Of a stretch of 29,807 nt of DNA, positions 3,831-29,590 are shown one piece after another. Numbering within the stretch: the stretch's first letter is position 1; each line of letters opens with the position of its first letter. A program made the position numbers and the translations under genes. The stretch is from Clarias gariepinus (Eukaryota). The stretch lies in assembly GCF_024256425.1 (NCBI RefSeq), contig NC_071110.1, forward strand, positions 2,508,274-2,538,080, read 5' to 3'. The notes below the pieces were generated by a model. The model did no database searches, was not told the origin of the DNA, and saw only the letters and a program-made list of their open reading frames with translations.

Positions 3831-4269
3831 ACATGCTCTGCTGTGTTAAACAAATAAATCTCTCCTTTTATACCAAATTTTAAGCAACTACAAGTTTTTT
3901 GGATTAAACAAACAAGCAAAATCACAATGAACATTAAGACTTACATATTGCAAGGTGGCTATTGTCCATATTATCTATCCAGGATACAGTGGATCCAGTA
4001 TATAAAGTTGTGTATTTAAATGCACTTACAGCAAAGTTACACACCAGCTGGAGCATTAAAGAATGAGTGAGGGCAGTGACTTAGTATTATCCAAGCAGGG
4101 AAACACAAGTCAATTTTACAGTGGCTGATCCACATTGTAAATATTTTAAAGATTTTTTCCATTCACATCAAATTACAATGCAGAAAACTTCAAAATTTAG
4201 ATTTTTGAAATGTGCAAATATTGATATTTTTTATGTCATATGTGGAAATCATTTATGGTAAATCAAAAT

Positions 4270-4287
4270 GGGGGGGGGGGGGGGGGG
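4270..4287. repeat. G18 homopolymer
   Basis: 18 consecutive G residues. Confidence 0.9.
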
Positions 4288-4779
4288 TAGTGGAACTGAC
4301 TACCCAGGGCCCTAGTGACAGAGGGCCCTTGGAAACCTGGAATGAAATATGAAAAATATGGATTTGGGTGATTTGGCTAGTGGCTGCTAAACATACCAAC
4401 TGGAATAAATACAGTCACATGCATTTGTTGTATCACTTGTAACTCTGCAATGATAAAATCTATCATTTTATACAGGTAACGTGTACTGTATGTTTAGCAT
4501 TAGAGGAAATGTCTGGGCGTGCACAGAGGAACGTTGTGTGCATGTACAGTGTGTGCAGAATCAATGCCCTTATTTTCAGGAACTCAAGCTTTACTAAAGA
4601 GTTGATCTTTTTTTGGGCATTCATTTTGATATGTTCAACTTAAACAATAATCTGGTTTTCCGCGAACTTATAAGAAGGTAATAATAATAATAGTAATATT
4701 TCTTTCCATTATTATGATATTTACAGGCAACAGAATAATTTTCTTGTGTTGATATAGTAGTCACCACTGGATTAAAATA

Positions 4780-5040
4780 GAATTATTTTTTACCACATAG
4801 GTTTCTATAGCATTGATTAGTTTTGTTTTGTGCCACTAAGTAATGAAAAACCTACTGCAACCTCATAACATGATTTATTTCATGCCAGGGCATGAAAGCG
4901 TGGTATGTGTTTGGGCTAAAATATTAACCTCCCATGTGAACCGAAATAAAGAAATCTGGCATCTACATTGTCAAAACCACAGCTTCCTGCAGCAGCTTCT
5001 CTGACAATCCACATGATGAAACAAATCAACAGATTGTTGG
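4780..5040 (-). pseudogene. Duplicated, degraded copy of the katnal1 DDIADL...PWKG exon plus flanking intron
   Basis: Nucleotide similarity to 8440-8710. Compare ggaagctgtggttttgacaatgtagatgccagatttctttatttcggttcacatgggagg with gggaagctgtggttttgccaatgtggatgccagattttttcaagggcattcggcacccatggaagg. The flanking intronic blocks also match (...agcattgattagt.ttgtt.tgtgccact...ctactgcaacct.ataac). The reading frame is not preserved. Confidence 0.55.
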
Positions 5041-5201
5041 AGATCATTTTGGCATGAAACGCGAAATTCCTAAATTCTCCCACAAGACCTCACTTCTCTG
5101 ATCCTTGCACTGACTGATAAATGCTCGCAACAAATTCAAAACACTGATGCTTGCCTGAAAAGCTACTTTAAAAACAGTTAAGCACCCACTTACCACTCAG
5201 C

Positions 5202-5426
5202 TCAATCACACCTCGCACCGCAACACGTTCCCTCTGGTTCTCCAGCACTGCTCAACTGATCCCTCCGTCTGTCAGGGATCGAGGAAGACATGGGCTGTTT
5301 ACTTCTAGACAGCTGTGTCACTGGCAATCTTAAAGCAATGACTAAAGACCCACAATGTAACCTTGGATTGCGAGCATAATTCTTTCCAGAAGCGTGTTCA
5401 TATATCACATGACACTCGTAAATCAA
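5202..5426 (-). pseudogene. Possible highly diverged katnal1 C-terminal exon remnant
   Basis: The ORF reads ...LPVTQLSRSKQPMSSSIPDRRRDQLSSAGEPEG. It aligns loosely to katanin ...[27 protein letters not shown], sharing T, R, M, RRR, Q, L and EE. The similarity is weak and could be chance. Confidence 0.15.
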
Positions 5427-6327
5427 AGCAAATTTCCCCCATAAGAAATAATGAAATCCAGATTATTCGTTCCACAGCCAAAAAATAAATAAATACATAC
5501 CAATAATTAATACAAAACATAAAGTAAAAACAAAACAAATTAACCTGCACTTACCTTAGTAACCTTAGTAGAAGGTTAAAGAACTATTTTCTCTCTCTCT
5601 CTCTCTGTCAGCCTCTCGGTGTGTGCACACTTCATTAGACTCTGTGCCCCTCCCCTCCACACACATTTTTTATTGGGAAAATAAACAAGAAATTTTTCTA
5701 ATAACACTCGAGTGCGCATACACACTAACAGGATCTCTGCTTTAAAGTAAAAATAAAACAAATTAACCTGCACTTTACCTTTGAAAAGAATCACGACAGA
5801 GCAGTGTTTCCGTTAGAGTGTGTGTGTGTGTTTGTGTGTGTAAAGGGTGGAGGAGGAGGAGAACATTAGCTCGGTTGTGATCATGTGACACTCGCCTCCA
5901 AAAACAAGAAGCGCATGTTTGCCACAGGATACTTGGTATTTATTTAAAAAATTTGCTCGTCTTGCGGAACATTTGCAAACCGGGTAACTCACAATCCGAG
6001 GTTCCACTGTATATTTCTTAGATATTTAGGTTAATCGTTCTTAAAAGATTTTTAAAAAAAAACCCTACCAAGAGTGTTTGCCTGATGTTACTTAGTCAGT
6101 AACCTAGTAATTGGTGTAACTTTAAAGCACTTTTGTAAGTCGCTCTGAACAAGATAATGTATATTGATAAAGTATCTCAACGTCTAGTATGGGCTTCAAC
6201 ATTATACTAATTTAATACTGTCATCCTCATAATAAAGATTATAAAAAATCTCTCTACAAGCATCTACTAAGTTATACAAAACATCATATATATAAAAGCT
6301 ACATTGTTTGAGACTATTTTTATTCTG

Positions 6328-6521
6328 TTTACATTTAGGCATTTGGCAGACGCTCTTATTCAGAGCGACTTACATTTTTATCTCATTACACATCTGAGCA
6401 GTTGAGGGTTAAGGGCCTTGCTTAAGGGCCCAACAGTGACAACTTGGTGGTTGTGGGGTTTGAACCTGGGATCTTCCGAACCGTAGTCCAATGCCTTAAC
6501 CACTGAGCTACCCCTGGCCCC
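6328..6521 (-). mobile_element. tRNA-derived SINE (teleost family), reverse orientation
   Basis: Reverse complement of the tRNA-like head ggggccag.ggtagctcagtggttaaggc.ttgg...ggttcaaaccccacaaccaccaagttg.cactgttgggccctt.agcaaggcccttaaccctcaactgctcagatgtgtaatgagataaaaatgtaagtcgctctg...gccaaatgcc.aaatgtaaa. The same family occurs at 25401-25600. Confidence 0.75.
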
Positions 6522-6609
6522 ATTCTGTTAATCTGCACAAAAAGAGAGTCCTCAGTCGATATTAGTATTTTTGGACAAGACGTATTAATTCATATTAATA
6601 AGACACTGC

Positions 6610-7110
6610 AGGACTATCTTTACGCTGTACCTCAGACTTCAGACACTGCTCACAATTTTGCCATCTGCAGAAGTTCTCGGATGATTCTGCTGTCGTGGGC
6701 TGTATCAGGAGAGGCCGAGAGACTGAGTACTGGAGTGTTTTGTGAAGTGGTGTGAACTAAATCACCTGCAGCTCAATGTTTTAAAAAGAGCTGGTGGTTG
6801 ATTTTAGGAAGCAGAGGACCATCCCTAACCCCATAAACATCATGGGCAATAAGGTGGACGTTGTGGACAGCTACAAATACCTAAGTGTTCACATTGACAA
6901 TAAACTGGACTGGTCAAAGAACACTGCTGTTTACAAAAAAGGTCAGAGTCGCCTGTACTTTCTCAGAAGAATTGGGTCCTTTAATATATGCAGAACCATG
7001 CTTCAGATGTTCTACTATTCTGTGGTCTCCAGCATTATCTTCTCTGCTGTAGTCTGTTGGGGTAGCAGATTAATACCAGTGGCATTCAAACTCTATAACT
7101 CTTCCCCCTT
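6610..7110 (+). mobile_element. Non-LTR retrotransposon (L2/CR1-like) RT C-terminal fragment
   Basis: Translation reads KFSDDSAVVGCIRRGRETEY...VVDFRKQRTIPNPINIMGNKVDVVDSYKYLSVHIDNKLDWSKNTAVYKKGQSRLYFLRRIGSFNICRTMLQMFYYSVVSSIIFSAVVCWGS. This is the conserved FADDT...VDFR...LGV.I...L.W......KKAQQRL.FLR tail of fish LINE ORF2. It is interrupted by stops and truncated. Confidence 0.7.
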
Positions 7111-7600
7111 CATTTGGGAGCTGTCATGACAGCATTATCAATAGAGCTTTATCATGCCCTGATACATTGTGCAAAATTAGTATCACAATAATAATAACAT
7201 CATATGCAAAACCAATAATTATGCAAGATTATAAAAATCAAGTGCAATATCATACGGTGTGCAATATTAATATCACTATTACTCTCTATATGCAATATCA
7301 AATATTATGTGCAATATATATCCTGGGTGCAATAATATACATGTACAATACACAAAAGAGGCAATTCTGCACTTTTCTATACAATCAGTAGTGCTTTTAT
7401 TTATTTATATATATTTATTCTATTTATATCAGTTTTTGACATTATAGTACATTTTATTTTATTTTCTAATTTTTTTTATTTCCCATCCTATTGTATTTGT
7501 ATTTTTTAAATATGCAGCTACTGGAGAAACAATTTCCTTCGGGATTAATAACGACTTTTCTTATCTTATTTTTTGCTTTATCTTATTTTTTCTTATCTTA

Positions 7601-7822
<222 letters not shown>

Positions 7823-8169: not shown

Positions 8170-8377
<208 letters not shown>

Positions 8378-9670: not shown

Positions 9671-10385
9671 TCAGTAATAGTCAGAACAAAAATAGCAGAA
9701 CATCGTATAATTTCTTTTAGGCTTTCCTTGCTTTGAGGATTAGGGCAATTAAACCTTGTTTTATACTTGTCATAAATTCTTCCCTGTCTATTCACTCTTT
9801 TAATGCATTGATGAGTACATTTTCAATTCTTCCAAAAGGAAAAAAGGAGAAAAAAAGCAAAGCCAAAACCTTTTTAATCATCTTTTAGAATGTCTTTTCC
9901 AGTGATATGAAACAGATACCTAGAGCCTTTAGTGAAACTAACTTTCCTTTATTCATTTTCATATAACACAGGGATGTTCAGAAAATGGTTGCTTTCATGA
10001 AACAGAAAGTTTTGCTGCCACAGCCTCAATAAACTTTTCATTCTCTTTTATCATACCACTAATTTACCATAGAACCTTGCTTCTCTTGCTAGAAGATGCT
10101 GTTGTGGCTAAATGAGCAAAGCCCCACAACTACTGTACATTCCAAAATTCAAAGGAAATCGTTCCCTGTTTTGTCGAGATTGTTTTAACTGAAATATAAA
10201 TCTGGACTCTTAAGAAAAATCACATGAGGGCATGATGGTCAGGTGTCGATAAACATTTTTACATACAGTATAGTGTAAATGATAATGTAACCACAATAAA
10301 ATTACATTAGTATTACAGAATTTGGCACTGTTGCTTAGGGAAAAAATAAATCTGAAGCTCTAGTTATTTTCCCCCCAAAACCATT

Positions 10386-10912
10386 TCATTTATTATCACA
10401 TAACCTTGTAGTTGAGTTAGTACCCATACAGAACCCAGCATACAGAGGCTGAGTGAATGTGGTGCGCACTCTGTGGAGGAGCCTCATTGTGTAAGAGACA
10501 CTGTAGAAGGACAGAGTTCCAGCATTGTAATCTACATACACTCCTATTCTGGAGGACGCTGGACCTCGGAGCTCAGTCTCAATGCTGTTGTGCCGGAAAG
10601 ATACAGAGGAAGAAAAACACCTCAGACTCCAGGACTGACTGTTGAATCCAAACACACACTCATCACCCTGTCCTTTCCTGCTGATCCCTTGATATGAGAC
10701 TGATATTAACACACCATCACCGCTCCACTCCACCTCCCAGTAACAGCGTCCACACACACTCTCCTTACACAACACCTGAGACCAGGAGTCAAATCTCTTC
10801 GGATGATCAGAGTATTGCTGTCGTGTCCTAATACGTGTCACCGATCTGTTCTTCTCAGACAGAATGAGTTCATAATTTGCTGTTTTGGGATCCAGAGTCA
10901 GATAACGGAAAT
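10386..10912 (-). CDS. Orphan B30.2/PRY-SPRY exon (finTRIM-type terminal exon) with its own stop codon; no upstream RING or coiled-coil exons found
   Basis: The ORF reads ...FRYLTLDPKTANYELILSEKNRSVTRIRTRQQYSDHPKRFDSWSQVLCKESVCGRCYWEVEWSGDGVLISVSYQGISRKGQGDECVFGFNSQSWSLRCFSSSVSFRHNSIETELRGPASSRIGVYVDYNAGTLSFYSVSYTMRLLHRVRTTFTQPLYAGFCMGTNSTTRLCDNK*. It has the classical LDPNTA, CYWEVEW and LSF motifs. The acceptor ttttag|ATTTCC and its phase match those of exon 6 of the upstream ftr gene, to which it is about 75% identical. Confidence 0.7.
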
Positions 10913-11329
10913 CTAAAACAATAAAATGACCACAGGTTGGATTTAAATTTTTATAATAAATATGTGTGAGAGTGTACTCATGCTCTGTATAAAACACTTG
11001 CGATACGGGCTCTTAATCAGTACACCACACAGTACTGATCCATTTTGCACATCACAAATATGTTTTTTGCAGTCACTCTGCACATTCTGGACATTCGTTT
11101 ACACTAGTGGTCACTGCACAACTACACTTCCTGGTCATTAGTTAAATCACTCTATCACAAGTCACTTTAAATAAATCACTTTCGAGCATATTTGCACGCA
11201 CAAGACACTTTAAATATGTGGATTGCACAGCCCCTGGACATTACCATTTTTATTACCATTTATATCTAACTTTATTTCACACAAAAATTCCTAAAAATCT
11301 ACATCTACTTTGTACAGCTGTTTTTCTTA

Positions 11330-11480
11330 TTGTTCCATATTTTTTTCATATATTTTCTTATATTGTGTTTTTTGTACTGTACAGTTATTTTATTTAAATT
11401 TTATATTTTATTTTATTCTTTCTTAGTTAAACTTACCCTTTATTTTATTTTTCATATTTATTTCCTATTTATAGTTTTTT
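11330..11480 (+). repeat. AT-rich ~130-bp repeat, copy 2 (paired with 9541-9670)
   Basis: See 9541-9670. The orientation is direct. Together the two copies flank the orphan B30.2 exon. Confidence 0.7.
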
Positions 11481-11559
11481 ATTTTAAGGTCATGAGCAGT
11501 TGTCAAAGCATTTTACTGCATACACATTGTACTGTACACATTGGCGGCATGGATTCGAT

Positions 11560-11880
11560 TCCTGGCCATCTCAATTCCCGTCTCTGTGTGCATGGAGTTT
11601 GCATGGTCTCTCTGTACTTGATGGGTTTCCTCCGGGTACTCTGGTTTCCTTCCACAGTCCAAAACCATGTAGGTTAGGTTAATTGGCGTTTCTTAAATTG
11701 CCAATAGTGTGTGAATGAGTGTGTGAGTGTGTGTATGTCTGTGTGCCCTGCAATGGATTTGCACCCTGTCCAAGATATACCCCGTCTCGTGCCCTAATTT
11801 TCCTGGGACAGGCTTCAGGTCCCCGCGACCCTGAATACAGGATAAAGTGGTATACAAGATGAGTGAGTATAGATAAAGCA
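11560..11880 (+). repeat. Widespread teleost interspersed repeat fragment
   Basis: ...ggtttcctccgggtactctggtttccttccacagtccaaaaccatgtaggttaggttaattggc...gtgtgaatgagtgtgtgagtgtg...gccctgcaatggatttgcaccctgtccaagatataccccgtctcgtgccctaattttcctgggacaggcttcaggtccccgcgaccctgaatacaggataaagtgg is a sequence common in fish introns. Related pieces lie at 15770-15900 and 16900-16990. Confidence 0.6.
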
Positions 11881-11902
11881 CACAATGTGATTTTGGCTGA
11901 AA

Positions 11903-11907
<5 letters not shown>

Positions 11908-11948
<41 letters not shown>

Positions 11949-11949
11949 T

Positions 11950-11989
<40 letters not shown>

Positions 11990-11992
11990 TGT
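11908..11992. repeat. Compound microsatellite (ATT)n-(GT)n
   Basis: (TTA)13 followed by (GT)18. Confidence 0.9.
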
Positions 11993-12373
11993 CATTCCTC
12001 ACCTTTATATTGCCAACAGTCTGTTTCAGGTCCTCCACCTTTTTTTTTTATTTTCCTGGGTCCTCTGCTGGGATTGTTCCTGCTCAATTTTTAGTTCTTT
12101 CTTTCCAAATAAAAATTTAATTTTTCATTTTATTTAATTATATGCTCTCTAAAACTCTAATTTATTCTTCTGCATTGTAATTGATCGTAAAAATTCTGTT
12201 TCATCTACAATTTGTTAGAATTGGACTCTACTGCTCCATATCAATAGGAAGTGGGAGTGAATTAGCAAGACAGTGAGGTCCAAGAGATCCTCACCTTCTA
12301 AGCATTTCATCAGTGATGTTATGTAACTGTATTTCATTGCCTTGTAGCATACATGTGCAAGGACAACAAAGTC

Positions 12374-12397
12374 TAATCTAATCTAATCTAATCTAAA
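12374..12397. repeat. (CTAAT)n pentanucleotide repeat
   Basis: ctaatctaatctaatctaatctaa. Confidence 0.8.
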
Positions 12398-13080
12398 TGT
12401 AACAGCAAATGTCCACGTCTATCAAAAGCTTCTCAGCAGTCAGTCCACCTCCCCACCTTAATTGTTTTAAAAGTAACAGTACTTGTATTTGGTACTTCTG
12501 GCCCACATGTAAGTTATGCACATGTAGTGTTACAGATCACAGTAGACATTGACACACTGAGTTCACTTCACTCCAATCTATTCTCTCATCTCACATATCT
12601 CCGAAGTATCCTTCACAAAACTACTACCAGTAACCTCATGCACTCCCCCAGACCCAAACTGTGGTGGTATTTAAGCTCTAAAAATTCCAGTCCAGAAATC
12701 TGACTTCATCCTGGTTTTAGCTTCAGCCTTTTCTTTTTCCGGGCACTAAGTAAAACCTGGAGCACACCAGAAAGACCAGGGCAAAAGACCAGGTTTGCTT
12801 ATGTTATGGAGTTGTTGATTCTATAAGGTGTGTCTTGCATTGTCTCATCTTAAAATCCAAAAGGTGTTTAAATACACTGAATGATCTAATAAGTTAACAC
12901 CTTACAGTACATACAATAACAATTTGATATTAAATAAGAATTAACCAGATGGAAGTCATAGATCCATTTTAAATCAACTAAACACAACTAAACAAATTAT
13001 AAGTATCTGTGAAACTGACCCATTGACAGCAAATCATTAAAAAAGAGTTTTTAAAATTTTCAAATGCATATGCCTTTCAT

Positions 13081-13489: not shown

Positions 13490-14050
13490 ATAGCGCTTTA
13501 TATGACGTAAAGCAACTTTACAGAACTAAACAGACATGCATTTGCATAAGGTTACAAAAAATAAGTAAAAAATACAGTTCTATAGTTTATTTGTCAACAA
13601 AACTTCAGGTTGTCTTACAAACACACAAATAGAAACAGAAACTGTTGTCTAAATAAAGACAGGCAATAGTATTGGAATCTACTGTTTTAGTTCAGACCTG
13701 GTTTGTTGATTCTTGCTGTTCCACAGGGACTGAATAGATTCATTTTTAAAAAAACATAAGATTTAGCAATAACACATCAGACAAAACATTCTATAGTTTA
13801 AACTATGTACTTAATTTCAAACTACCTAACAAAAACTATAAAATGTCCCCTATGCAGATGAAAGTAAAATAATAATGATAAGAACTAACACACGCAAATA
13901 TGCAGCTTCCAGCCGTGAATTCAAACTACAAGTGGAGAATAGACGAGCCAATCCAGAAACCAAGAATGTGCACACCTCCAGTTTCTGATTGGCTGGTATT
14001 GCCCCAATTTTAGTTTCTGGTTGGCTGGAACTGTGGCAGAGTTCTAGCGC
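13490..14050 (+). repeat. Interspersed repeat with CCAAT-like TTTCTGATTGGCTGG motifs (paired with 19930-20175)
   Basis: ...ggttacaaaaaa.aagt..ctatagt.t...caacaaaacttca.gttgtct.acaaacacacaaa...ttcaaacta.aagtggagaa.a..gagc.aatccag.a.caa.aatgtgc...ctc.agtttctgattggctggt.tt is shared by both copies. The motif occurs twice in this copy. Confidence 0.6.
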
Positions 14051-14287: not shown

Positions 14288-14811
14288 TCATTTTGGATCA
14301 CATAACTTTACAGTTGAGTTATAAAATACCCAGAACCCAGCATACAGAGTTTGAGTGAATGTGGTGTGGACTCTGTGGAGGAGCATCATCGTGTCAGAGA
14401 CATTGTAGAAGGACAGAGTTCCTTCACTGTGATCCACATACACTCCTATCCTGGAGAAGGCTGAACCTTGGATCTCGGTCTCAACATTGTTGTGCCAGAA
14501 AGAGACAGAAGTAGAAGAACATCGCAGGCTCCAGGACTGATTGTTCCGTCCAAACATACTCTCATCACCTCGTCCTTTCCTGCTGATCCCTTTGTATGAG
14601 ACTGCCATGTACACACCACCACTCCACTCCACCTCCCAGTAACAGCGTCCATACACACTCTCCTTACACAATGCCTGAACCCAATAGTCAAATCGCTCTG
14701 GATGATCAGAGTATTGTTGATCTGTCCCACTGCACACCATTGCTCTGTTCTTCTCCTTCAGAACAAGTTTAGGGTATGCCGTGTTAGGATCCAGGGTGAA
14801 ATATTTGAAAT
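14288..14811 (-). CDS. finTRIM (ftr) gene exon 6: B30.2/PRY-SPRY domain and stop
   Basis: (Y)FKYFTLDPNTAYPKLVLKEKNRAMVCSGTDQQYSDHPERFDYWVQALCKESVYGRCYWEVEWSGGVYMAVSYKGISRKGRGDESMFGRNNQSWSLRCSSTSVSFWHNNVETEIQGSAFSRIGVYVDHSEGTLSFYNVSDTMMLLHRVHTTFTQTLYAGFWVFYNSTVKLCDPK*. The acceptor is gttttttag|ATTTCAAAT in phase 2. The length is 524 nt, that is 2 + 174 codons. The exon is open from the acceptor to TGA. Confidence 0.8.
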
Positions 14812-15419
14812 CTAAAAAACAATAAATGTCACTGAAGGCTGCTCATTATAGGATTTATAATACATGTTTCTGTCCGATCAATTGTGTTGTTGTTTTTTTT
14901 TTTTTTGAAGATTTACTCCTTAATTTAGTCATACCTACTTTCCATCCGTTACTAGGGGGCTTTTATATTAAGGCTACTACTACGACTCAGAGAGAGCCAA
15001 AGACTATTACGTGTTTCCTCCGAACCGTGCACATGCTGCTAGCTAACCGCATCTTTTCAAACTCACGCTCACTCACTATTGAGGGTGGCGTAACACACTC
15101 GGAGAACAGCACTATCTTCTCCTTACCCCTGTGAGAGCTCACAGATACCCCTGATTGGCTGTAGAGCCGTGATTGATGTGATAGTCTTGACCACCCCCAT
15201 CCCACTCCCGCTGAGGGAGCTCAGTCAAGACCCTGGCTGACCATCGCAAGCTCTCTCTCGACCCTGGCTGAGGCTGCAGCATCACCGGGGAATGACTCAT
15301 TATCTCTATATGATATCGCAAGCACTTTAACACTGTGCTACTTGGGGGCCATAATTGTGGTTTAATATTACCCAACATCACCCCTCAAGTTCAAATGTGT
15401 AGCTAAACATTTACACTTA

Positions 15420-15476
15420 CACTGCAGGAAATCCTTTCTGCTTTTCGGTTCAGAGAGCAACATCTGACCTGCTGAA
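15420..15476 (-). CDS. finTRIM gene exon 5 (57 nt)
   Basis: tcttcacag|CTTCAGCAGG...TTCCTGCAGT|gtaagtg. With phase 1 in and phase 1 out it encodes (A)SAGQMLLSEPKSRKDFLQ(Y), which links ...ISKILSE to FKYFTLDPNTA. The acceptor and donor are consensus-like. The exon is small, so alternative positions cannot be excluded. Confidence 0.5.
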
Positions 15477-15769
15477 GCTGTGAAGACAGAGACAAAGTGG
15501 AGATAAGAATAATGTGGAAACAGTGGAAAGAATAAATATGAAAAATTTTATTCCTTCCTGGTTTCAGAGTGGCACCTCAATAACAGATATTATTTATGGT
15601 GATATCTTTGTGTAATATGTGGGTTGACTAGTGGGTAAAATCAGTATTAGATTTCAAGGCATAATTCTTGTTACATGCAAACAGGATTACATAAATATAT
15701 ACTGTACACCGCCTGGCCAAAATCAAATATACTAATATTTTGTTTGCCGTCCTTGTTTTGATAATAGAC

Positions 15770-15900
15770 ATGACATCCTTTATGTAAAATTGTGGACTGT
15801 GGGAGGAAACCGGAGTAGCCGAGAGAAACCCACCAACCCACTCCAACTCTACCCACAGACCAAATGTGGGATTTGAACCCACAACACTACTGTGCCATCT
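15770..15900 (+). repeat. Teleost interspersed repeat fragment
   Basis: gactgtgggaggaaaccggagtagccgagagaaacccaccaacccactccaactctacccacagaccaaatgtgggatttgaacccacaac resembles the common fish repeat ...ggactgtgggaggaaaccggagcacccggaggaaacccacg.... Confidence 0.5.
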
Positions 15901-16139
15901 GTGTATATTTTTCATTACCCTTTAAAAAAGCAATATTTTAGCTTTTAAAATGATTAAATATCATACATCATGATTACGCTGTTTATTCATTTACTGCAAA
16001 CCCTCTGATAGACCCAGTGACTTTTATGGGTGTCTGTGGCGGATTCAAGTACACCTAGTTTTAACAAATGTTTGACAAATAGTGTTAATCTAATTTAAAT
16101 AAAGTCTTTTGAGTCTCTGAATTATAAGAACTTGTTTAC

Positions 16140-16299
16140 CTTCTGAAAGAATTTTGCTGATTTTTTTCCCACAGATTTCCTCGATTTGTTTTTTTAGACG
16201 TGAGAGCGATTTCATCACTCCATCAAATGTGAGATGTTGATTGACAGTGAAGCTGGGTGAGTCCTCACATCCAGGAGAAACACAGAGAGACGGGAAACT
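16140..16299 (-). CDS. finTRIM gene exon 4 (160 nt)
   Basis: ctgtag|AGTTTCCCG...TTTCAGAAG|gtaaac. It encodes SFPSLCVSPGCEDSPSFTVNQHLTFDGVMKSLSRLKKQIEEICGKKISKILSE plus 1 nt, and matches the ftr/btr linker between the coiled coil and the B30.2 domain (SF.SL...P......S..V.........V..S...L...LE.FC..E..KIS). Confidence 0.65.
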
Positions 16300-16487
16300 C
16301 TACAGAGAGGAAACACATCATAGAGAAGGAGAAAAGTGTAGGAGAGGAACGAATGAATCTCAGACTGAATCAGACCAAAGACACACTTGTGATCTCAGAC
16401 AGGAACATTTATTGTTGCTGTAATGAGCTTTTAGGAGGAAACTTTGTGAGGAACAGCGCCCTCTGTAGATCAGACAGTGAGTGTTAC

Positions 16488-16721
16488 CTGGAGGAAGTGG
16501 ATGTCATCGTGTGTGTGTGAAAGCTGTTCCAGCTCAGTGACTCTCCTCTTAAGATCAGCAATCTCCTGCTCCAGTTGCTTCAGGAGTCGTTCAGCTCGAC
16601 TCAGTTCAGCTTTCTCCTGAACTCTGATCAGCTCCGTCACCTCCGAGCGCTTTTTCTCCATAAGGCTGATCAGCTCAGTAAAGATCCTCTCATTCTCATC
16701 TACTGCTGCCTGTGAACGCCT
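16488..16721 (-). CDS. finTRIM gene exon 3 (234 nt, coiled coil)
   Basis: ttctaacag|AGGCGTTCA...TTCCTCCAG|gtaaca. It encodes RRSQAAVDENERIFTELISLMEKKRSEVTELIRVQEKAELSRAERLLKQLEQEIADLKRRVTELEQLSHTHDDIHFLQ, 78 codons in phase 0. The 234-nt length equals the canonical ftr exon 3 and the sequence closely matches the ftr consensus. Confidence 0.8.
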
Positions 16722-16728
16722 CTGTTAG

Positions 16729-16845
16729 AACACACACACACACAGACGCACACACAGACACACATACACAAAGAACTTTCTTATAAAATCAGATCCTTTT
16801 TTGTTTTTTTTGTGTGTGTGTGTGTGGGGGGGGGGTGGTCGGGGG
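16729..16845. repeat. (CA)n / (GT)n / poly-G compound microsatellite abutting the exon-3 acceptor
   Basis: acacacacacacagacgcacacacagacacacatacaca ... tgtgtgtgtgtgtgtgggggggggtggtcggggggt. On the minus strand this places a (TG)n tract immediately 5' of the exon-3 acceptor. Confidence 0.85.
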
Positions 16846-16989
16846 GTAAAGCATGGGGTTAGCCCAAGTAAATAAAAGTATGTGCAGGCCAAAGCATACT
16901 TAAGTGTATCTTCTATAACGCTTTCTCCTGTATACAGGCGACCTGGAGCCTATTCCAAGAGGCTTAGGGCATGAGGCAGGGTACAGTAC

Positions 16990-17270
16990 ATCCTGGACAT
17001 TCCTCCAAAGCAGGAGAGATCTCCTCTAGAGCAGTGATGTTTTGGGGCTGTCGCTGGGCAACATGGACTTTCAACTCCCTCCAAAGTTTTTCCATGGGGT
17101 TGAGATCTGGAAACTAGCTAGGCCACTGCAGGACCTTGAACTGCTTCGTTCCCTGGTGGTTTGTTTCGGATTATTGTCATGCTGAAAGACCCAGCCACAT
17201 TTTATTCCCAATGCCCTTGCTAATGGAAGGAGGTTCTCACTCAAAATCTTACGATACTTGGCCCCAGTAG
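16990..17270 (-). mobile_element. Tc1-like transposase C-terminal fragment
   Basis: Minus-strand translation contains ...[35 protein letters not shown]..., the Tc1 DDE C-terminal signature (LEWPSQSPDLNPIENLW..LK..V..R.P.N...L). Confidence 0.65.
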
Positions 17271-17379
17271 TATTAATGTCCTATTGTGTTACTGTTACTG
17301 TCAGTGAATATCTGTCCTGGTCCCTTATAGTCCAGGACAGATATTGGAAATTGGATGCTAATTAACTTCCTTCTGCCTA

Positions 17380-18095
17380 ATCCTGATAAGAGAGAAGTTC
17401 TAGTCATAGGACCGCATACAGCTAGAAGTAAGATTTTAGATTACTCTGTAACTTTAGATGGCCTTTCTGTTCCATCAAGTGCAACAGTAAAAGACCTCTG
17501 TGTGATTATAGACTCCAGCCTAATATAGATAATATTATCAGGATAGCATTCTTTCACCTCAGAAATATTGCCAAGATAAGAAATATATTGTCGCTAAACG
17601 ATGCAGAAAAACTAGTTCATGCTTTTATCACCTCTAGGTTGGACTATTGTAATGCCTTACTGTCTGGTTGTTCAACTACTGTAGGTGCATAAACAAGCTT
17701 CAGCTAGTCCAGAATGCAGCAGCGAGAGTCCTCACTAGAACCAGAAGATATGAGCACATCACACCTACCTTATCTTTACTTCATTGGCTCCCTGTAAAAT
17801 TTTGCATTGTTTTTAAAACACTACGTTTGACATAAAGTATTAAATGGTCTCCCACCGCAGTATCTGAGTGAACTGCTAGTGTCTTACAAACCGCCACGCC
17901 TACTTCGATTGAAGGATGCAGGCTGCTTGTCAGTACCGCGTATTATGAAAAATACAGCTGGGGGCAGAGCTTTTTCTTACAAAGCCCCAAAGTTATGGAA
18001 TAGTCTTCCAAATAGTGTTCGGGACTCAGACACAGTCTCAGTGTTTAAGTCCAGGCTAAAAACCTATTTATTTAATCAAGCATTTTTATAAATAG
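17380..18095 (+). mobile_element. Non-LTR retrotransposon 3'-terminal fragment
   Basis: Translation reads ...NILSLNDAEKLVHAFITSRLDYCNALLSGCS...LQLVQNAAARVLTRTRRYEHITPTLSLLHWLPVKF.IVFKTL ... GGRAFSYKAPKLWNSLPNSVRDSDTVSVFKSRLKTYLFNQAFL*. This is the conserved tail of fish LINE-associated elements (AF..A.P.LWN.LP..IR.A.SL..FK..LKTHLF). Confidence 0.65.
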
Positions 18096-18394
18096 ATTAG
18101 CCTTAGGTAAAGGAGCAGATCTGGGGGACTCATGGACGTAGAGTATTAGGTGAACTGGTATGTTTAGATCCTGTCTTCCTCACTCTCATTGATCACTCAG
18201 GTTTGCTGACGGTGAGGTGATTGGTTGCTTTACATCTCAGGAAGCCCTCATGTCTGTGTTTCCTTCTGGCTCTCCCTTTTAGTTATGCTGTCATAGTTAG
18301 TCCTGCCGGAGTCTCTGCTTGCACTCTACAGTAAATATACATTTACATTATACATTGTATGACTGTGACCAGACCTAACTGGTATCTCTTCTCT

Positions 18395-18470
18395 TCTGCT
18401 CTCTCTACTGCTCTTTCTCTTCCCTCTCTCCTTCCCTCTCTCCCTTTCCCTCTCTCTGTCGAGCTACACA
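18395..18470. repeat. CT-rich low-complexity tract (CTCTCC/CCTCTCT)n
   Basis: tctcttctgctctctctactgctctttctcttccctctctccttccctctctccctttccctctctctg. Confidence 0.8.
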
Positions 18471-19018
18471 TGTCGTTCCTAAGCTGCCAGTGATCCAGAC
18501 TCCCTCTGCCCTCCGGACCTGTCTGACTCATCCTGGTGCCCCGCTTCTGGTTGGAGATCTTGTCACATGGATGCCCCGTGTGTCTCTTTGGGATGCGTCT
18601 CGTGTCTGGTGATGGTTATCTTGACCTAGAAGACGGTTCTGGACTGGAATTTTTATACAAGTCCACCTGAGTTTTCAATAACTAACTGGACTCCATATTT
18701 ACATCAATTAACATCAACTGTTAAGCTGAACTGCCTGCCAACTAACACACAGTATAAATGCAGATCAATTCCTGCTTTCTGTTTCACCCAAATGAGGATG
18801 GGTTCCCCGTTGAGTCTGGTTCCTTTCAAGCTTTCTTCCTACTACCATCTCACAGAGTTTTTCCTTGCCACTGTCGCAAAAGATTTCCTGTGGCGCTCTG
18901 TGGAACATTTTACGTAATCAGTCTCTGGCTAAAATTGCTCCTCTGGTTAGCGAAAACCCTGTATAGTGGGTGAGAAGGATTGTTCAAAATGGATTGTACT
19001 TTGGAAAGAATCCTCCTC

Positions 19019-19780
19019 CTAGCTACTTTTCATTTCGGCCTTTTTAATTGCCTTGTCCAGTCTGTTCGTATCAAACACCTTCATGTTACAGCCCCAACAG
19101 ACCACAGCGTAAAAAATGACACTCGCCACAACGGTTCCATAAAACATCCGTAGAATGGTGTTACACCATTGGAGTAGGTGTATTATGGTGTCCTTTACTC
19201 CCATGAAAGGCTGATAGGCAAACTGAAGAGGGTCCAGAGAGGACTTCACCAGGGGACGAAGTGCATCCAGGATCAGTCTCTCCAACACCTTCATAATGTG
19301 CAATTTCAAAGCAACAGGCCTGTAGTCATTCTGGGCACAGGAACGTGATATTTTGGGGACCAATACAATACATGATTGTATTTCCACAATGCAGAGACTT
19401 TCTGTAGAGACAGACTTAAGGCTAAAGGGGTACTGGAGGACACCACAGAGTTGGGGAGCACAAGATTTCAGGACTCTGGGATTTATCTTGTCCGGACCAG
19501 CTTTACAGCTTTTGTAGGGCTGAGCTTGCTTAGGCCATATTTGACCTGATCCACTGAGATATTGAATGAGGGGAGTGCAGGAGTAGTGAATGTTTTTGTG
19601 TAGGGGAGGACATGGGAGCAGGAAGGTGGATTGGGGCTGAAGCTGGGGAAAGTGTGAGACATGGGGACATCAAATCTATTAAAGAAAGTGTTGAGATTGT
19701 TTGCAAATTCCACATTCCCCTCAATAGCCTTGCAGCTTGTCTTATAGCCATGGTGCTCCCCATGCCCCTCCACACCTCTC
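19019..19780 (-). mobile_element. L2/CR1-like LINE RT fragment with an internal deletion
   Basis: ORF 19483-19773 ends LSPTKAVKLVRTR (the ...KAAGPDGI.PR.LK region). ORF 19019-19387 reads IVLVPKISRSCAQNDYRPVALKLHIMKVLERLILDALRPLVKSSLDPLQFAYQPFMGVKDTIIHLLQ joined directly to ...FYGTVVASVIFYAVVCWG...LDKAIKKA. The RT N-terminal and C-terminal motifs are therefore juxtaposed and the core is missing. Confidence 0.7.
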
Positions 19781-19789
19781 TCGTGTTGT

Positions 19790-19900
19790 TTTGATTTAGC
19801 CTTTTTTTCCAGTTATTTTCCCAATCCAGACATTCTCCCAGTTCTCTTCTGGATCATCCAAATGCTCTCTAGCAAACTTTAGACGGGCCGGGACATGTTA
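19790..19900. mobile_element. Tc1-like element fragment
   Basis: ccaaatgctctctagcaaactttagacgggccgggacatgtt matches the Tc1-like segment also seen at 26700-26760 (ttttggcaaacttcagacgggctgccatgtgtc). Confidence 0.4.
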
Positions 19901-19929
19901 CATGTTATCAGTAATGATTAGGCAGATTT

Positions 19930-20175
19930 TATTCATAAGGTTAACAGATTTAATTTGCACACGGTTACAAAAAAAAAGTTTCTATAGTCTTCAACAAAAC
20001 TTCACGTTGTCTCACAAACACACAAACAAAAATATAAATTTTGTCTGAACAAAACAGGCATGTTTAATCAAGAATTCAAACTAGAAGTGGAGAACAACAG
20101 AGCTAATCCAGGAGCAAAAAATGTGCCTGCCTCTAGTTTCTGATTGGCTGGTGTTCACTAGGGAAGTGACGCTGG
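19930..20175 (+). repeat. Second copy of the 13490-14050 repeat, ending about 20 bp from the ftr exon 2 donor
   Basis: See 13490-14050. It contains one TTTCTGATTGGCTGG motif (20137-20151). Confidence 0.6.
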
Positions 20176-20196
20176 TAGTATTTTCTCACTCCTCAC

Positions 20197-20292
20197 CTTA
20201 ATAGTGGTCACAGTCTTTTCCAGCTCCTGCACCTCCTTCTGCTTCTTCTGGATCCTTGTCTGGGATTTCATCTGCTCCTCATTTAGCTCATT
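20197..20292 (-). CDS. finTRIM gene exon 2 (96 nt, coiled coil)
   Basis: ttctcag|AATGAGCTAAAT...ACTATTAAG|gtgaggagtgag. It encodes NELNEEQMKSQTRIQKKQKEVQELEKTVTTIK in phase 0. The 96-nt length is the hallmark ftr exon 2. The other two frames contain stops. Confidence 0.7.
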
Positions 20293-21399
20293 CTGAGAAA
20301 AAAGACATACATTTTATTAATTCTATGTTAAGGGCTAACTGTGTGAATATTAACTTTAGGTACAGATTTACACTTCCTGTAACTTCATATAACTCCCCAT
20401 CTCTTTCTTCCTGCACTACAGATGAAGGTTTTATATTATGGGGCTTTCCTCAGTTCATACCCTGCATCAGACAAAGAGTTTTTCAGCTATCAGTACTCAC
20501 CAATCTCTGTTTGATATCCTTGATATACATTATGAGCAGCTACTGTTTTTTTTATAGCTATGCACGCCTGTTTGGGCAACAATATTTAATATGACAGCTG
20601 TGGTTTCCACGCATTAGTTTCAATCAGTTTATCAACTGACTACCATCACTATTTCAAATAAACCCTATTGGCTAATTGTTATTGATAAATCTTGCTATCA
20701 AGACTTTTAGATGTATAACCGCATATGACATTAGGTAATTAAATTTTAACAACAAAAACAACAGTCAATTGTTATTTTAAGATAGTTCTTGCAAGAAAAG
20801 TATTGGGTCAAGTGCATTTTTAAAACCCATCAATGATGAAACTGTCTCTCATGAAGACCTTCCCAGGAAAACAAGACCAAAACTGAGCTCTGCTGCAGAG
20901 GAGAAGTTCATTTAGAGTCACCAGCCTCAGAAATCACCAATTAACAACCAGCACCTCAGATTAGAGCCGTTATGAAGCTTTACAGAGCAGAAGGAGCAGA
21001 TAAACATCTCAAAATCAACTTTTCAAATAAGATTATTGTTTATAAATTGTCTCCTGTTTAAAGGATATATTTTGGATATTTTGGTGTGTCCAAACTTTCA
21101 AACTTTTGACAGAGGTGCTACCACAGTTGTAAAATGGGAATAAATTCAGTGATAATCACTATTGGCCTCCATGGTCCTATAAGGGAGCACCATTAGAGGT
21201 CGCTGTTTGTCATTTGTAGTTTTTGTTGGCTGACTCAGTTTCCCAGAAGGCACGTCGGTCAGGTGATGCGAGTGCACACCTGAGCTGAGGTAGCCATTAG
21301 TCCATCTACAAAATAGCTGTTTAGTCTGGGAAACTGGGTCGAGCATTATCATTTACACGACTGTCATTTATGTGGGCATTTTGTGTTGTTTTTGTTAAG

Positions 21400-22120
21400 T
21401 TTGTATTTTGATTTACGTTATGGTTGAGTTGGGCTCTCATATTGGGAATGTTTCCTGTATATGTTCTGTGTGTCTATGTTTTTGGAGCTGATTCAGTCAT
21501 GTCATGTGTAGTGAAGTTCATGTGTATGTGAGTATTGTGGTTCTTGTCCCTCTGTTTTCGTGTGTGTTTAGGTAGAGCAGGTAAGTAGCTAGGTGTGTGT
21601 TTGGCTACTGTAGGAGCGTGTTTAGCTAAAAATCAAATGTTGAGCTAACTGTCATGCTTCTAGCCATAGCCCCTTTGTGTCTCTAGCCTTTGTGTTTCCT
21701 GCCTCCCTGGTTTCCCGGTGAGCCTAGCCTTTGAGTGTCCCTCATCTGTGTTTCTGTGCCCCGATTCCCTAGTGTTGTGTTGAGCTATTAGGTAAGTGTA
21801 GCTTAGTGCATGTCGGGCTAAAGACATGCTTAGCTAGATGTATGTGTAGCTGACTGTCATGGTTAGCTAATAGCCATGTCTAGCTCATTGCCATGTCTTT
21901 AGCCCTAGCCCTGTCTCTCGTCTGTCTTTAGCCCTAGTCCTGTCTCAGCTTCACGCATAGTTTGTGTCCTGTCACGTGTTTCGCCACAGGGTGTTTGCTA
22001 GGAGTCCTTCAGCCTGTTTTTCGCTACAGAGCTTGAACATAGTGTAACGGGTATTAGAGCCTGTTGGTGTCCCTTAGTCTGTGTCCTGCCTGAGAGCCGA
22101 TGTTATTAAGTTTTGTTTGA
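21400..22120. repeat. Internally repetitive low-complexity block in ftr intron 1 (tagctaa / tagcc / gtctttagccctagccctgtctc motifs)
   Basis: Recurring short motifs, for example ...gtctttagccctagccctgtctctcgtctgtctttagccctagtcctgtctc..., and multiple ttagcta / gtgtagct repeats. There is no coding potential. Confidence 0.5.
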
Positions 22121-22557
22121 GTTTGTTCCTTTGTTTGTTTTGTGTAGCAGCAATAAAATAGAGCTATGAAATTAGAATAAAAAAGATAGAGGATGGCATT
22201 AAAAATGGCATTTATGGGGCTTGTATTTAAATGTTAAGGAAACTTTGAGTTTGTGATGAAGGCCCTTTGAGAGATTACTTGCACTATTACTCACTTACTC
22301 CAGTAAGCCTAACACCTACATGTCAGAGTTCACAATACATCTGAGAATCGTTGATGTCATGAATGAACTGACAATTACATTTGTTGACAGATAATTTGAT
22401 TATAGATTTTAATTTTAAAAAGATTTTAATGTATATTCACATTCAAGTAAAACACAGTCATATATGCTAATAAAACAACTGAATAAAACTAGATTAGAAA
22501 CAGAATCTGCATAAATTTACATTAATGAAATGAAGAATAACATTGTCCAGTTCTCAC

Positions 22558-23139
22558 CTGTTTTTCAGTCCTTTCTGCTTTAGTTGAAACCGTCTCATGG
22601 CCTTTGTGTTCATCCATCGTACACAAGTAACAGATGAAGCTTTGGTCAGTACGACAGTAGATCTCGATCGGTTTGTCATGCTGAAAGCAGATCTTCTCTT
22701 GGAGCTCACAGGCTTCCACTAACTTGTGCTTCTTAAAGGCAGGAGACTGATAGTGAGGTTGAAGATGGTCTTTACAATAGGATGCCTGACACACCAGACA
22801 GGAATTAACAGCTTTGCGTTTTCTCCCGGGGCAGGAATCACACTCCACATCTCCAGGTCCAGCGTAACAGTGAGCAGGAGAAGCAGGTTGGACTTCAGAC
22901 TTCTTCAGTTTCTCCACCACTTCAGCCAGCATGGTGTTCCTGCGTAGAACAGGTCTTGGAGTGAAAGTCTCTCTACACTGAGGACAGCTGTAGACACCCT
23001 TTACATCCTCACAATCCCAAAAGTCATTAATACACACCTTACAGAAACTGTGGCCACAGGAAGTAGAAACTGGATCTTTTAGGAGGTCCAGACACACTGG
23101 ACAGCTAAACTGATACTGATCGGTTGAAATACCTGCCAT
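22558..23139 (-). CDS. finTRIM gene exon 1: RING (C3HC4) + B-box1 + B-box2; initiator ATG at 23139
   Basis: MAGISTDQYQFSCPVCLDLLKDPVSTSCGHSFCKVCINDFWDCEDVKGVYSCPQCRETFTPRPVLRRNTMLAEVVEKLKKSEVQPASPAHCYAGPGDVECDSCPGRKRKAVNSCLVCQASYCKDHLQPHYQSPAFKKHKLVEACELQEKICFQHDKPIEIYCRTDQSFICYLCTMDEHKGHETVSTKAERTEKQ | gtgaga donor. The exon is 194 codons. The listed ORF starts 6 codons upstream at a GTG. The first in-frame ATG gives MAGIS..., which matches ftr N-termini. Confidence 0.8.
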
Positions 23140-23189: not shown

Positions 23190-23212
23190 TGAGTTTCGTT
23201 TTCTGGGAAAAG
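23190..23212 (-). promoter_or_regulatory. ISRE overlapping a GAS site, about 55-75 bp upstream of the ftr start codon
   Basis: The sense (minus) strand reads CTTTTCCCAGAAAACGAAACTC. It contains GAAAACGAAACT (ISRE consensus GAAANNGAAACT) and TTCCCAGAA (GAS consensus TTCNNNGAA). Confidence 0.55.

Positions 23213-23365: not shown

Positions 23366-23371
<6 letters not shown>

Positions 23372-23436
<65 letters not shown>
23372..23436. repeat. (TA)32 microsatellite
   Basis: Perfect TA dinucleotide run. It abuts the MITE's left TIR. Confidence 0.9.
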
Positions 23437-26349: not shown

Positions 26350-26785
26350 CAGAGCACAGACCCAGCATGAAGTCATAGGAATTGTCTCGAGGCACAAATC
26401 TGGAAAAGGTTACAGAAAAAATTCTGCTGCTTTGAAAGGTCCCAATGAGCACAGTGGCCTCCATCATCCATAAGTGGAAGAAGTTCAAAACCACCAGGAC
26501 TCTTCCTAGAGCTAGCCGGCCATCTAAACTGAGCGATGAGAAGGGCCTTAGTCAGGGAGGTGACCAAGATCCTGATGGTCACTCTGTCAGAGCTCCAGAG
26601 GTCCTCTGTGGGGAAAGTGAGAACCTTCCAGAAGGACAACCATCTCTGCAGCAATCCACCAATCAGGCCTAAATCAGTTTCTCATGGTCTGAGGGTCCTT
26701 TAGGTGCCTTTTGGCAAACTTCAGACGGGCTGCCATGTGTCTTTTACTAAGGAGTGGGTTCCGTCTGGTCACTTTACCATAAAGG
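26350..26785 (+). mobile_element. Tc1-like transposase N-terminal fragment followed by an inverted partial segment
   Basis: Forward part: ...KVPMSTVASIIHKWKKFKTTRTLPRASRPSKLSDEKG..., the Tc1 N-terminal HTH (cf. SVSTVQTIIRKWKKFGTTRTLPRAGRPAKLS). From 26690 to 26785 the sequence ...ttttggcaaacttcagacgggctgccatgtg...cactttaccataaaggcctgatt is the same element region in reverse orientation. Confidence 0.6.
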
Positions 26786-27839: not shown

Positions 27840-29169
27840 CAGTTGTGTTTAAAAGAATAGCAGTGTGTTAAAAAAGTGAGTAAAGCTCCATATCCATATA
27901 ATAACTTTTCATTTAAATCACACAAATGCATTGGAAACCCTGCACATTCTATTCTGAATTACAACATGAAGAAAAATGTGCTAAATGAATAATTAGTTCA
28001 CAAAAAGTAAAGAAAAACAAATATTGGTCTGTTTAAAAAAATAGCAGTGTCATTATTCATCTTTACAAAGTGATGAATTTACAGTTTAAACAAAAATGCT
28101 TGAAGTTTAATCTTTCTTGTGCATCTCTGAACTAATATTTAGTTGTATAACCATGGTTTTCATTTTTTGTCTCAGACACAGCATTTTTAATGTCAGCCCA
28201 GAAGTTTTCTATTGGATTAGGGTCTGGGAATTAGGCTGGCCACTCCATAACGTCAATCTTGTTGGTCTGGAACCATGATGCTGCTCGCTTACTGGTGTGT
28301 TTGGGGTCGTTGTCTTGTTAAAACACCAATTTCAAGGGCATTTCCTTTTCGGCATAAGGCAACATGACCTCTTTAGGTATTCCGAGGTACTCAAATTGAT
28401 CCATGATCCCTGAAATGTAATAAATAGGCCCAACACCATAGTACGAGAAGCATCCCCATATCATGATGCTTGTGCCTCAATGCTTTACTGTCTTCACAGT
28501 GTACTGTGGTTTAAACTCAGCGTTTGGGGGCCTGACAAACTGTCTGCAGCCTCTAGACCCAAAAAGGACAAGCTTGCTTTTATCAGTCCACAAAATATTG
28601 CGCAATTTCTCTTTAGGCCAGTCAATGTGTTTTTTGGCGAACTGTAACCTCTTCAGCACGTCTTTTTTTTTAAAATGTGACTTTACGGGGGCTTCTTGCT
28701 GATAGCCTTCTGGTTTTGGTCTCCATTTTAGAGCATTTAATATCATTTTAGCAAAGCAGTCTATTATTTCCTGCACTTCTTTGTATGTTTTCCCATCTCT
28801 AATCAACTTTTGAATCAAAGTACGCTGTTCTCCAAGACAATGTCTAAAACGACCCATTTTATTTTTTAGAGAGAAATGCACAGAACAACCTTTTCTGCAT
28901 TTATCCTTGAATTTTTTCATCCTTGAATACACCAGTTTTTCACAGAATAATTTACCTCTCTAATTAAACTTCACACTATTATTTTGAACACGACCCTTTT
29001 CGATTAATGATTTAATTACACAGAATCAGGTGCAGGTTGGGCCTGTTGGTTTCTATTACTCCACTACACCTACAAGTAAAATATTTACCAGGAAGAAATA
29101 TAATTTCTCCCAAAAACAATTATTGATTTGTTTACTGATGTTGGACTGCTATTATTTTGAACACAACTG
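27840..29169 (-). mobile_element. Non-autonomous Tc1-like DNA transposon (1.33 kb) with intact TIRs, flanking TA, and a degraded transposase
   Basis: The left end TA|CAGTTGTGTTTAAAAGAATAGCAGTG matches the right end CACTGCTATTATTTTGAACACAACTG|TA as an inverted repeat. ORF 28477-28932 (minus) reads ...GEQRTLIQKLIRDGKTYKEVQEIIDC...KKKDVLKRLQFAKKHIDWPKEKLRNILWTDKSKLVLFGSRG, the Tc1 HTH and first D region. The remainder is frameshifted (...LDVMEWP..SPDLNPIENFW... at 28150-28270) and the C-terminus is truncated. Confidence 0.75.
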
Positions 29170-29171
29170 TA

Positions 29172-29590
29172 CATACGTTTTGGACAAATACGTATCATTA
29201 TATAGATCTACAAGTGGAGATCAGGATCCAAGTGATTGAAAGGGAAAATCTAATATAAAAAGGTGTACAAACAACAGGGATGACAGTCTTAAGAAGATTG
29301 TCAAGCAAAGCTGATTCAAGAACTTGGGAGAGGTTCACAAAGAGTGGAGTGAGGCTACAGTCATCAGGAGCCACCATGCACAGATGTCTTCATGAAATTG
29401 GCTACAATTGTAGCATCCATAGTATTAAGCCACTCCTGAACCAGAGACAACTTCAGAAGTATCTCACCTACTGTATAGTAAATTTAACAATGATAAACAC
29501 ACACACACGGGACTGACCATAGAGAACATTTAGGGAAGAGAACCACAATGGTGCCGCACAAATCCTCCACTGCCTACACGTGACATGCTC
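29172..29590 (+). repeat. Copy B (3' part) of the 1.5-kb repeat, including a Tc1-like transposase N-terminal fragment (ORF 29280-29516)
   Basis: tatagatctacaagtggagatcaggatccaagtgattgaaagg...ggtgtacaaacaacagggatgacagtcttaagaagattgtcaagcaaagctgattcaagaacttgggagaggttcacaaagagtggagtgaggctacagtc aligns with 3455-3610. The ORF reads ...SGATMHRCLHEIGYNCSIHSIKPLLNQRQLQKYLTY. Confidence 0.7.

Follow-up and report, generated by a model that had tools for sequence, protein, structure and literature searches.

Genes of the finTRIM (ftr) family of fish, described since 2009, follow a very well conserved plan in the zebrafish, with six exons of 555-594, 96, 234, 154, 60 and ~545 coding nt (van der Aa et al. 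2009, PMC2657112). Their products carry a RING, two B-boxes, a coiled coil and a B30.2 domain that is encoded by a single exon and is the most variable region, and the genes lie in same-orientation tandem clusters, which also hold many pseudogenes and truncated copies (PMC2657112). Their nearest tetrapod relatives are TRIM16 and TRIM25, to which they are similar without being orthologous, while the bloodthirsty (btr) genes are relatives of TRIM39 and group with it in trees based on B30.2. In fish, trim25 and trim16 themselves are single-copy genes with conserved synteny, and the RBB region of TRIM16 is truncated (PMC2657112). The finTRIMs that have been characterised promote or damp interferon (IFN) signalling, usually by E3-dependent action on components of the pathway (review PMC13030082). 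Here, we describe a gene on the minus strand at positions 14288-23139 of a 29 807 nt stretch of Clarias gariepinus DNA (contig NC_071110.1, positions 2 508 274 to 2 538 080; referred to as the window). It is very probably an intact ftr gene that forms one unit of a tandem cluster of ftr genes in the same orientation, an assignment made from sequence comparisons.

All six exons of the gene were confirmed by joining them and inspecting their flanks (Table 1). The spliced coding sequence of 1653 nt is open throughout and consists of 550 codons and a stop. The exons are 582, 96, 234, 160, 57 and 524 nt long, the junction phases are 0, 0, 0, 1 and 1, and the 10 splice sites are all canonical, with AG/GT at every junction, once exon 5 is corrected. 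In the original prediction, which was made from the DNA letters and their open reading frames (ORFs), exons 1 to 4 and 6 were placed exactly and are flanked by AG and GT, but exon 5 (15420-15476) was off by one base. At that position, the preceding intron would end in GC and the following intron would begin with TA. Moving exon 5 to 15421-15477 restores the AG/GT sites (CAG/CTTCAG...CTGCAGT/GTAAGT, with slashes marking the junctions) and alters 19 codons, changing the peptide from VQQVRCCSLNRKAERISCS to ASAGQMLLSEPKSRKDFLQ. The corrected peptide aligns with AAAVQMILPSEPKSREDFLQ of catfish homologues, though exon 5 is one codon shorter here than in most catfish paralogues. As the shift affects neither length nor phases, the consistent phases, the total of 1653 nt and the product of about 550 aa that had been predicted were all borne out. 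The shift changes two junctions, to 16140/15477 and 15421/14811, and the others are 22558/20292, 20197/16721 and 16488/16299. Positions -3 and +4 around the start ATG at 23139 are A and G, respectively, and there is an in-frame stop approximately 27 codons upstream with no ATG between them.

Table 1. Features of the ftr locus and its surroundings, in window positions. Slashes mark exon-intron boundaries.
Feature	Position	Strand	Description
Exon 1	22558-23139	-	582 nt coding, aa 1-194; RING C3HC4 aa 13-55, B-box 1 aa 100-138, B-box 2 aa 151-181; donor CAG/GTGAGA
Exon 2	20197-20292	-	96 nt, aa 195-226, start of coiled coil; AG/GT, phase 0
Intron 2	16722-20196	-	Between exons 2 and 3
Exon 3	16488-16721	-	234 nt, aa 227-304, coiled coil; AG/GT, phase 0
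Exon 4	16140-16299	-	160 nt, aa 305-358; AG/GT, ends in phase 1
Exon 5 (corrected)	15421-15477	-	57 nt, aa 358-377 (...SEPKSRKDFLQ); acceptor CACAG/C, donor GCAGT/GTAAGT
Exon 6	14288-14811	-	524 nt including TGA 14288-14290, aa 377-550, PRY/SPRY (B30.2); acceptor TTTTTTAG/A
Candidate polyadenylation signals	ATTAAA 14256-14261, AATAAA 14217-14222	-	26 and 65 nt past the stop; motif match alone
ISRE GAAAACGAAACT	23192-23203	-	Perfect match, 53-64 nt upstream of ATG
GAS-like TTCCCAGAA	23201-23209	-	Overlaps ISRE
Exon 6b, ftr-type B30.2	10386-10912	-	527 nt, TTTTAG acceptor, phase 1, open frame, TGA at homologous position
Katanin p60-type AAA ATPase fragments	8258-8332, 7619-7819	-	Exon-like; Walker A GPPGTGKT in 8258-8332; best solved matches KATNAL1 and KATNA1, E ~1e-34
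LINE ORF2 reverse-transcriptase fragment	19019-19773	-	Intron 2; RVT_1 E=0.0017, below the Pfam curated cut-off
Tc1/Sleeping Beauty-like fragments	26445-26672, 28477-28932, 29280-29516, 3528-3761		All outside the gene
UnaL2 LINE 3' element	6333-6386	-	Rfam, 58.6 bits, reaches gathering score
LINE-derived ORF	6794-7129	+	Pfam ALKBH8_N match; neighbours UnaL2 element

The predicted protein has the architecture of the zebrafish ftr products, namely a RING, two B-boxes, a coiled coil and PRY/SPRY. Pfam matches to TRIM_CC (9e-52), PRY (3e-19), RING (3.5e-12), SPRY (6e-11) and B-box (9e-11) are all above the curated cut-offs, and with E-values as low as 9e-52 a chance match is ruled out. The Cys/His zinc-ligand patterns of the RING and of both B-boxes are complete (regular-expression check). 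The exon plan is also that of the zebrafish genes, including the 96 and 234 nt pair and the single B30.2 exon, and the deviations are confined to the last three exons, at +6 nt in exon 4, -3 nt in exon 5 and ~-21 nt in exon 6. As in the zebrafish, TRIM16 and TRIM25 are the closest tetrapod relatives, with TRIM25, TRIM16 and TRIM16L giving the best matches among solved structures. Dozens of relatives of ~550 aa that are 74-83 % identical to the predicted protein were found in catfish genomes, and a single chromosome often carries many of them. More distant homologues in Silurus asotus (62-66 % identity) include some annotated as 'finTRIM family, member 14', and a full-library search recovered 2100 representatives of 50 %-identity clusters at E<=1e-30. 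One-to-one orthology of the catfish gene with any of the numbered zebrafish ftr genes is not expected.

Comparison of 83 catfish homologues places the greatest variability in the B30.2 domain, as in the zebrafish family. The mean column entropy there is 0.65, versus 0.34-0.53 for the regions of the RING, B-boxes and coiled coil, and four variable patches were found at aa 399-410, 455-465, 481-493 and 533-546.

A perfect interferon-stimulated response element (ISRE) lies close upstream of the start codon and is overlapped by a gamma-activated site (GAS)-like motif (Table 1). The ISRE pattern used, GAAANNGAAACT, has two matches in the window compared to 0.13 expected. The next complete ftr exon 1 of the cluster is preceded by GAAATTGAAACTCAGC, which lies ~72 nt before the start codon. 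A 50 kb composite, made by joining the window locus with the adjoining downstream locus, contains three copies of the shorter core GAAANNGAAAC, counting both strands together. Two of these three sites precede the two complete ftr first exons at similar distances, and each continues as ...GAAACTCAGC. The position and recurrence of the element support a gene that is probably responsive to interferon. From the family and the ISRE, both induction by IFN and an antiviral function would be expected of the gene. Just distal to the ISRE, ~230-300 nt before the ATG, there is a perfect (TA)33 microsatellite (23371-23436). This repeat in the promoter region could be length-polymorphic.

The gene is already known. 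Its corrected product is identical over 550/550 residues to GenBank KAM9469290.1 from C. gariepinus haplotype 1, so the gene is already public, and with the family long described its novelty is low. The GenBank entry was deposited as 'E3 ubiquitin/ISG15 ligase TRIM25-like isoform 1-T1' and is encoded on CM044214.1 (assembly GCA_024256435.1), where the annotated span of 8852 nt corresponds to window positions 14288-23139. The window and CM044214.1 are 100 % identical across the 25.5 kb compared. The haplotype 1 annotation was made independently using miniprot, RNA-seq/StringTie and ab initio predictors (PMC11458897).

A number of points weigh against an intact, IFN-responsive ftr gene of 550 codons. 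The public names of the protein are 'TRIM25-like' or 'TRIM16-like', and searches for named zebrafish ftr, btr, trim25 and trim16 proteins, including one bridged through a cyprinid homologue, returned only names of these two kinds. RefSeq models the locus differently, as a read-through protein of 1244 aa, and no contig in Logan (an assembly of public reads) encodes the exact 550 aa protein. Pairwise dN/dS (the ratio of non-synonymous to synonymous substitution rates) between B30.2 exons is 0.38-0.59, which does not demonstrate positive selection. The ISRE is a motif of only 12 nt, and the second match in the window (GAAACAGAAACT, 13632-13643, plus strand) has no obvious role.

The names given by GenBank and RefSeq would make the gene the catfish orthologue of TRIM25, or of TRIM16, with RIG-I-type endogenous targets. 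Full-length human TRIM25 is indeed the best solved match (257 bits, E=3e-75; PDB 4cfg, 6fln and 6flm), with RING, B-boxes, coiled coil and PRY/SPRY collinear over query residues 10-352 and 367-550, and by homology the same working mode would be expected, with dimerisation through an antiparallel coiled coil, E3 activity of the RING and substrate binding by the SPRY. However, the linker of roughly 80 residues in human TRIM25 (residues ~358-444) has no counterpart in the catfish protein, and human TRIM25 and the fish trim25 and trim16 genes are single-copy, whereas the catfish gene stands in a tandem cluster and has dozens of close relatives. From the missing linker and the multi-copy tandem state, we infer that it is not an orthologue of TRIM25. 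The exon pattern is of the ftr type, and the complete RING does not fit the truncated TRIM16. Orthology to either gene is therefore very unlikely. The original prediction had used the label finTRIM/bloodthirsty. Membership of an expanded fish ftr family of class-IV TRIMs stands, but the btr half of the label does not, as ftr and btr are separate families. The btr genes share the class-IV layout of RING, B-box, coiled coil and B30.2 and also form a multigene family in fish. However, the catfish B30.2 domain scores 112-131 bits over the TRIM16, TRIM16L and TRIM25 chains (131, 129 and 122 bits, respectively, for the best of each), whereas TRIM21 and TRIM11 reach 46-54 bits, though TRIM39 and the btr proteins themselves were not among the chains compared. 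Because the TRIM25/TRIM16-type scores exceed those of TRIM21 and TRIM11 and because B-box 1 is present, the gene is, as judged from these comparisons, an ftr and not a btr gene, and this agrees with the published grouping of btr with TRIM39 and of ftr with TRIM16/25 (PMC2657112). None of the top 120 matches listed bears the name 'bloodthirsty', and a btr origin is extremely improbable.

Two further alternatives concern the state and the extent of the ftr gene. RefSeq XP_053363466.1 (1244 aa) consists of residues 1-549 of the 550 aa protein followed by a second B30.2 exon, here called 6b (10389-10913 in that model), the katanin-like AAA fragments (8258-8332 and 7619-7819) and the downstream partial ftr, which would mean that exons 1 to 6 read on into a longer transcription unit. 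However, the join from exon 6 to 6b would require a non-GT donor (..GATCCAA/AATGA) right before the TGA in the window. The product would be pieced together from two B30.2 domains, two AAA ATPase pieces and a TRIM without a RING, as is typical of read-through in a tandem cluster, and the haplotype 1 annotation ends at 14288. For these reasons, the 1244 aa protein was rejected as a read-through chimera, and we consider a longer unit of this kind hardly probable. The gene might also be a recent pseudogene of a cluster with fast turnover, a paralogue that still looks intact but is silent or dying. Pseudogenes and truncated copies are frequent in ftr clusters (PMC2657112) and the downstream neighbour has no RING exon. 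However, the frame is open over the full coding length, all splice sites and zinc ligands are intact, the ISRE has been kept, and dN/dS of exon 6 is <1 relative to two neighbouring B30.2 exons. A pseudogene is thus improbable, and the intact ftr gene is the reading followed below.

The action of such a gene can be sketched from homology and the family literature. Type I interferon or a virus would raise transcription via the ISRE. The coiled coil would form an antiparallel dimer like that of TRIM25, and the RING would recruit a ubiquitin-loaded E2 for ubiquitin transfer. The variable loops of the B30.2 domain may then select the substrate, either a viral protein or a host component of the IFN pathway (TBK1, IRF, MAVS/MDA5 or TRAF-type, as for other finTRIMs). 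The IFN response would be either enhanced or damped.

On one strand, the 50 kb composite contains this gene, an orphan B30.2 exon (6b), a RING-less partial ftr and a further ftr exon 1, and other catfish likewise have many paralogues per chromosome. The composite contains a collinear repeat offset by ~25.5 kb. Window positions 2596-7583 and window-equivalent positions 27035-33133 align in collinear blocks that are 85-96 % identical. At this offset, the blocks show that the cluster is built from tandem segmental repeat units. The stretch comprising exon 3, intron 3 and exon 4 matches the downstream RING-less ftr at 96.5 % DNA identity, whereas the other exons are 81-88 % identical, and this difference suggests recent gene conversion or exchange between the neighbouring copies. 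That next gene, KAM9469301.1 (371 aa; positions 10001-13073 of the downstream-locus excerpt), is an ftr without the RING/B-box exon and retains only a degenerate B-box 2 remnant. The ftr after that has a complete exon 1 and its own ISRE (from position 21462 of the same excerpt). The katanin-like AAA pieces (Table 1) look like a gene fragment carried in the ftr tandem repeat unit. The second match to the ISRE pattern in the window is found on the stretch from the gene to exon 6b, ~650 nt past the stop codon.

Exon 6b is located 3.4 kb past the stop of the gene. At the amino-acid level, it shares 69 % identity with exon 6, whereas its identity to the B30.2 domains of other catfish ftr proteins reaches 80 %. 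In haplotype 1 it is unannotated, in contrast to its inclusion in the RefSeq chain. Stand-alone models containing only a B30.2 domain (170-300 aa), which are 65-79 % identical to 6b and are named 'stonustoxin subunit beta-like' or 'TRIM16-like', are very numerous in catfish annotations, and orphan B30.2 exons seem to be a common feature of catfish ftr clusters. One candidate relationship, that 6b is the orthologue of the second B30.2 in a double-B30.2 model from Pangasius djambal, is not clearly supported at 69-70 % identity.

Instead of being a relic, exon 6b could be a live alternative terminal exon, such that exon 5 is spliced to either exon 6 or exon 6b. In its favour, 6b has kept its acceptor, phase, frame and stop, and its dN/dS of 0.51-0.59 is similar to that of other B30.2 exons. 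Against its use, no exact protein corresponding to exons 1-5 plus 6b is present in the protein collection searched, a search with the 6b domain returned nothing above 79 % identity and no entries derived from Logan, and stand-alone B30.2 models are common. We consider use of 6b unlikely. If true, the locus would encode two E3 ligases with one RING/B-box/coiled-coil scaffold and B30.2 domains that are only 69 % identical, a cassette-type widening of the target range. Zebrafish ftr06 has a comparable arrangement (Boudinot et al. 2011, PMC3137616): past the terminal exon that it uses, there is a B30.2 exon that is intact and carries no mutations. However, the terminal exon used by ftr06 encodes a chromodomain, whereas the catfish exons 6 and 6b both encode B30.2.

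The introns had been predicted to be full of Tc1, LINE (long interspersed element) and SINE (short interspersed element) debris. This holds for one LINE fragment in intron 2, which weakly matches another LINE fragment at 6989-7072, but the Tc1-like pieces lie outside the gene (Table 1) and SINE heads were not found. Searches using tblastn with the Tc1 and LINE fragments of the window itself, together with self-blastn, found no Tc1 in the introns and, beyond the LINE fragment in intron 2, a single repeat of 82 nt. No tRNA-like SINE heads were detected in the introns by ARAGORN, in a search made without a repeat library, and Rfam identified only a UnaL2 LINE 3' element, outside the gene.

The pair of 96 and 234 nt exons had been taken as a signature specific to teleosts, but it is also present in a ray-finned fish that is not a teleost. 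XP_039616011.1 ('TRIM16-like', 559 aa) from the bichir Polypterus senegalus is 46 % identical to the catfish protein and collinear with it from end to end. It belongs to the same length class and its gene, on CM029062.1 (excerpt 3001-24971), has the same six-exon plan, with exons of 588, 96, 234, 160, 60 and 542 nt and AG/GT sites. A called gene model of the NACHT/LRR (NLR) type spans the bichir gene. In Polypterus and Erpetoichthys, several clusters of this kind were found, along with proteins that share both the architecture and the exon plan, and Acipenser has an ftr-like RING, B-box and coiled-coil protein. A literature search found no paper linking finTRIMs to the Polypterus, Erpetoichthys or Acipenser lineages. 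Because the bichir homologue shares the six-exon plan, the 96/234 pattern and the ftr-type architecture look to predate the teleosts, and the teleost-specific criterion of 2009 appears outdated.

On its own, the finding is of minor importance, and the value of the locus lies in a clean, verified gene model at a place where the public annotations disagree (550 aa in haplotype 1 versus 1244 aa in RefSeq), and it provides a worked example of a unit of a catfish ftr cluster. The intact orphan B30.2 exons beside ftr genes raise the question of alternative recognition modules. The presence of an ftr-type six-exon plan in bichirs weakens the label 'teleost-specific' for this family, and both observations may be of interest to fish immunologists.

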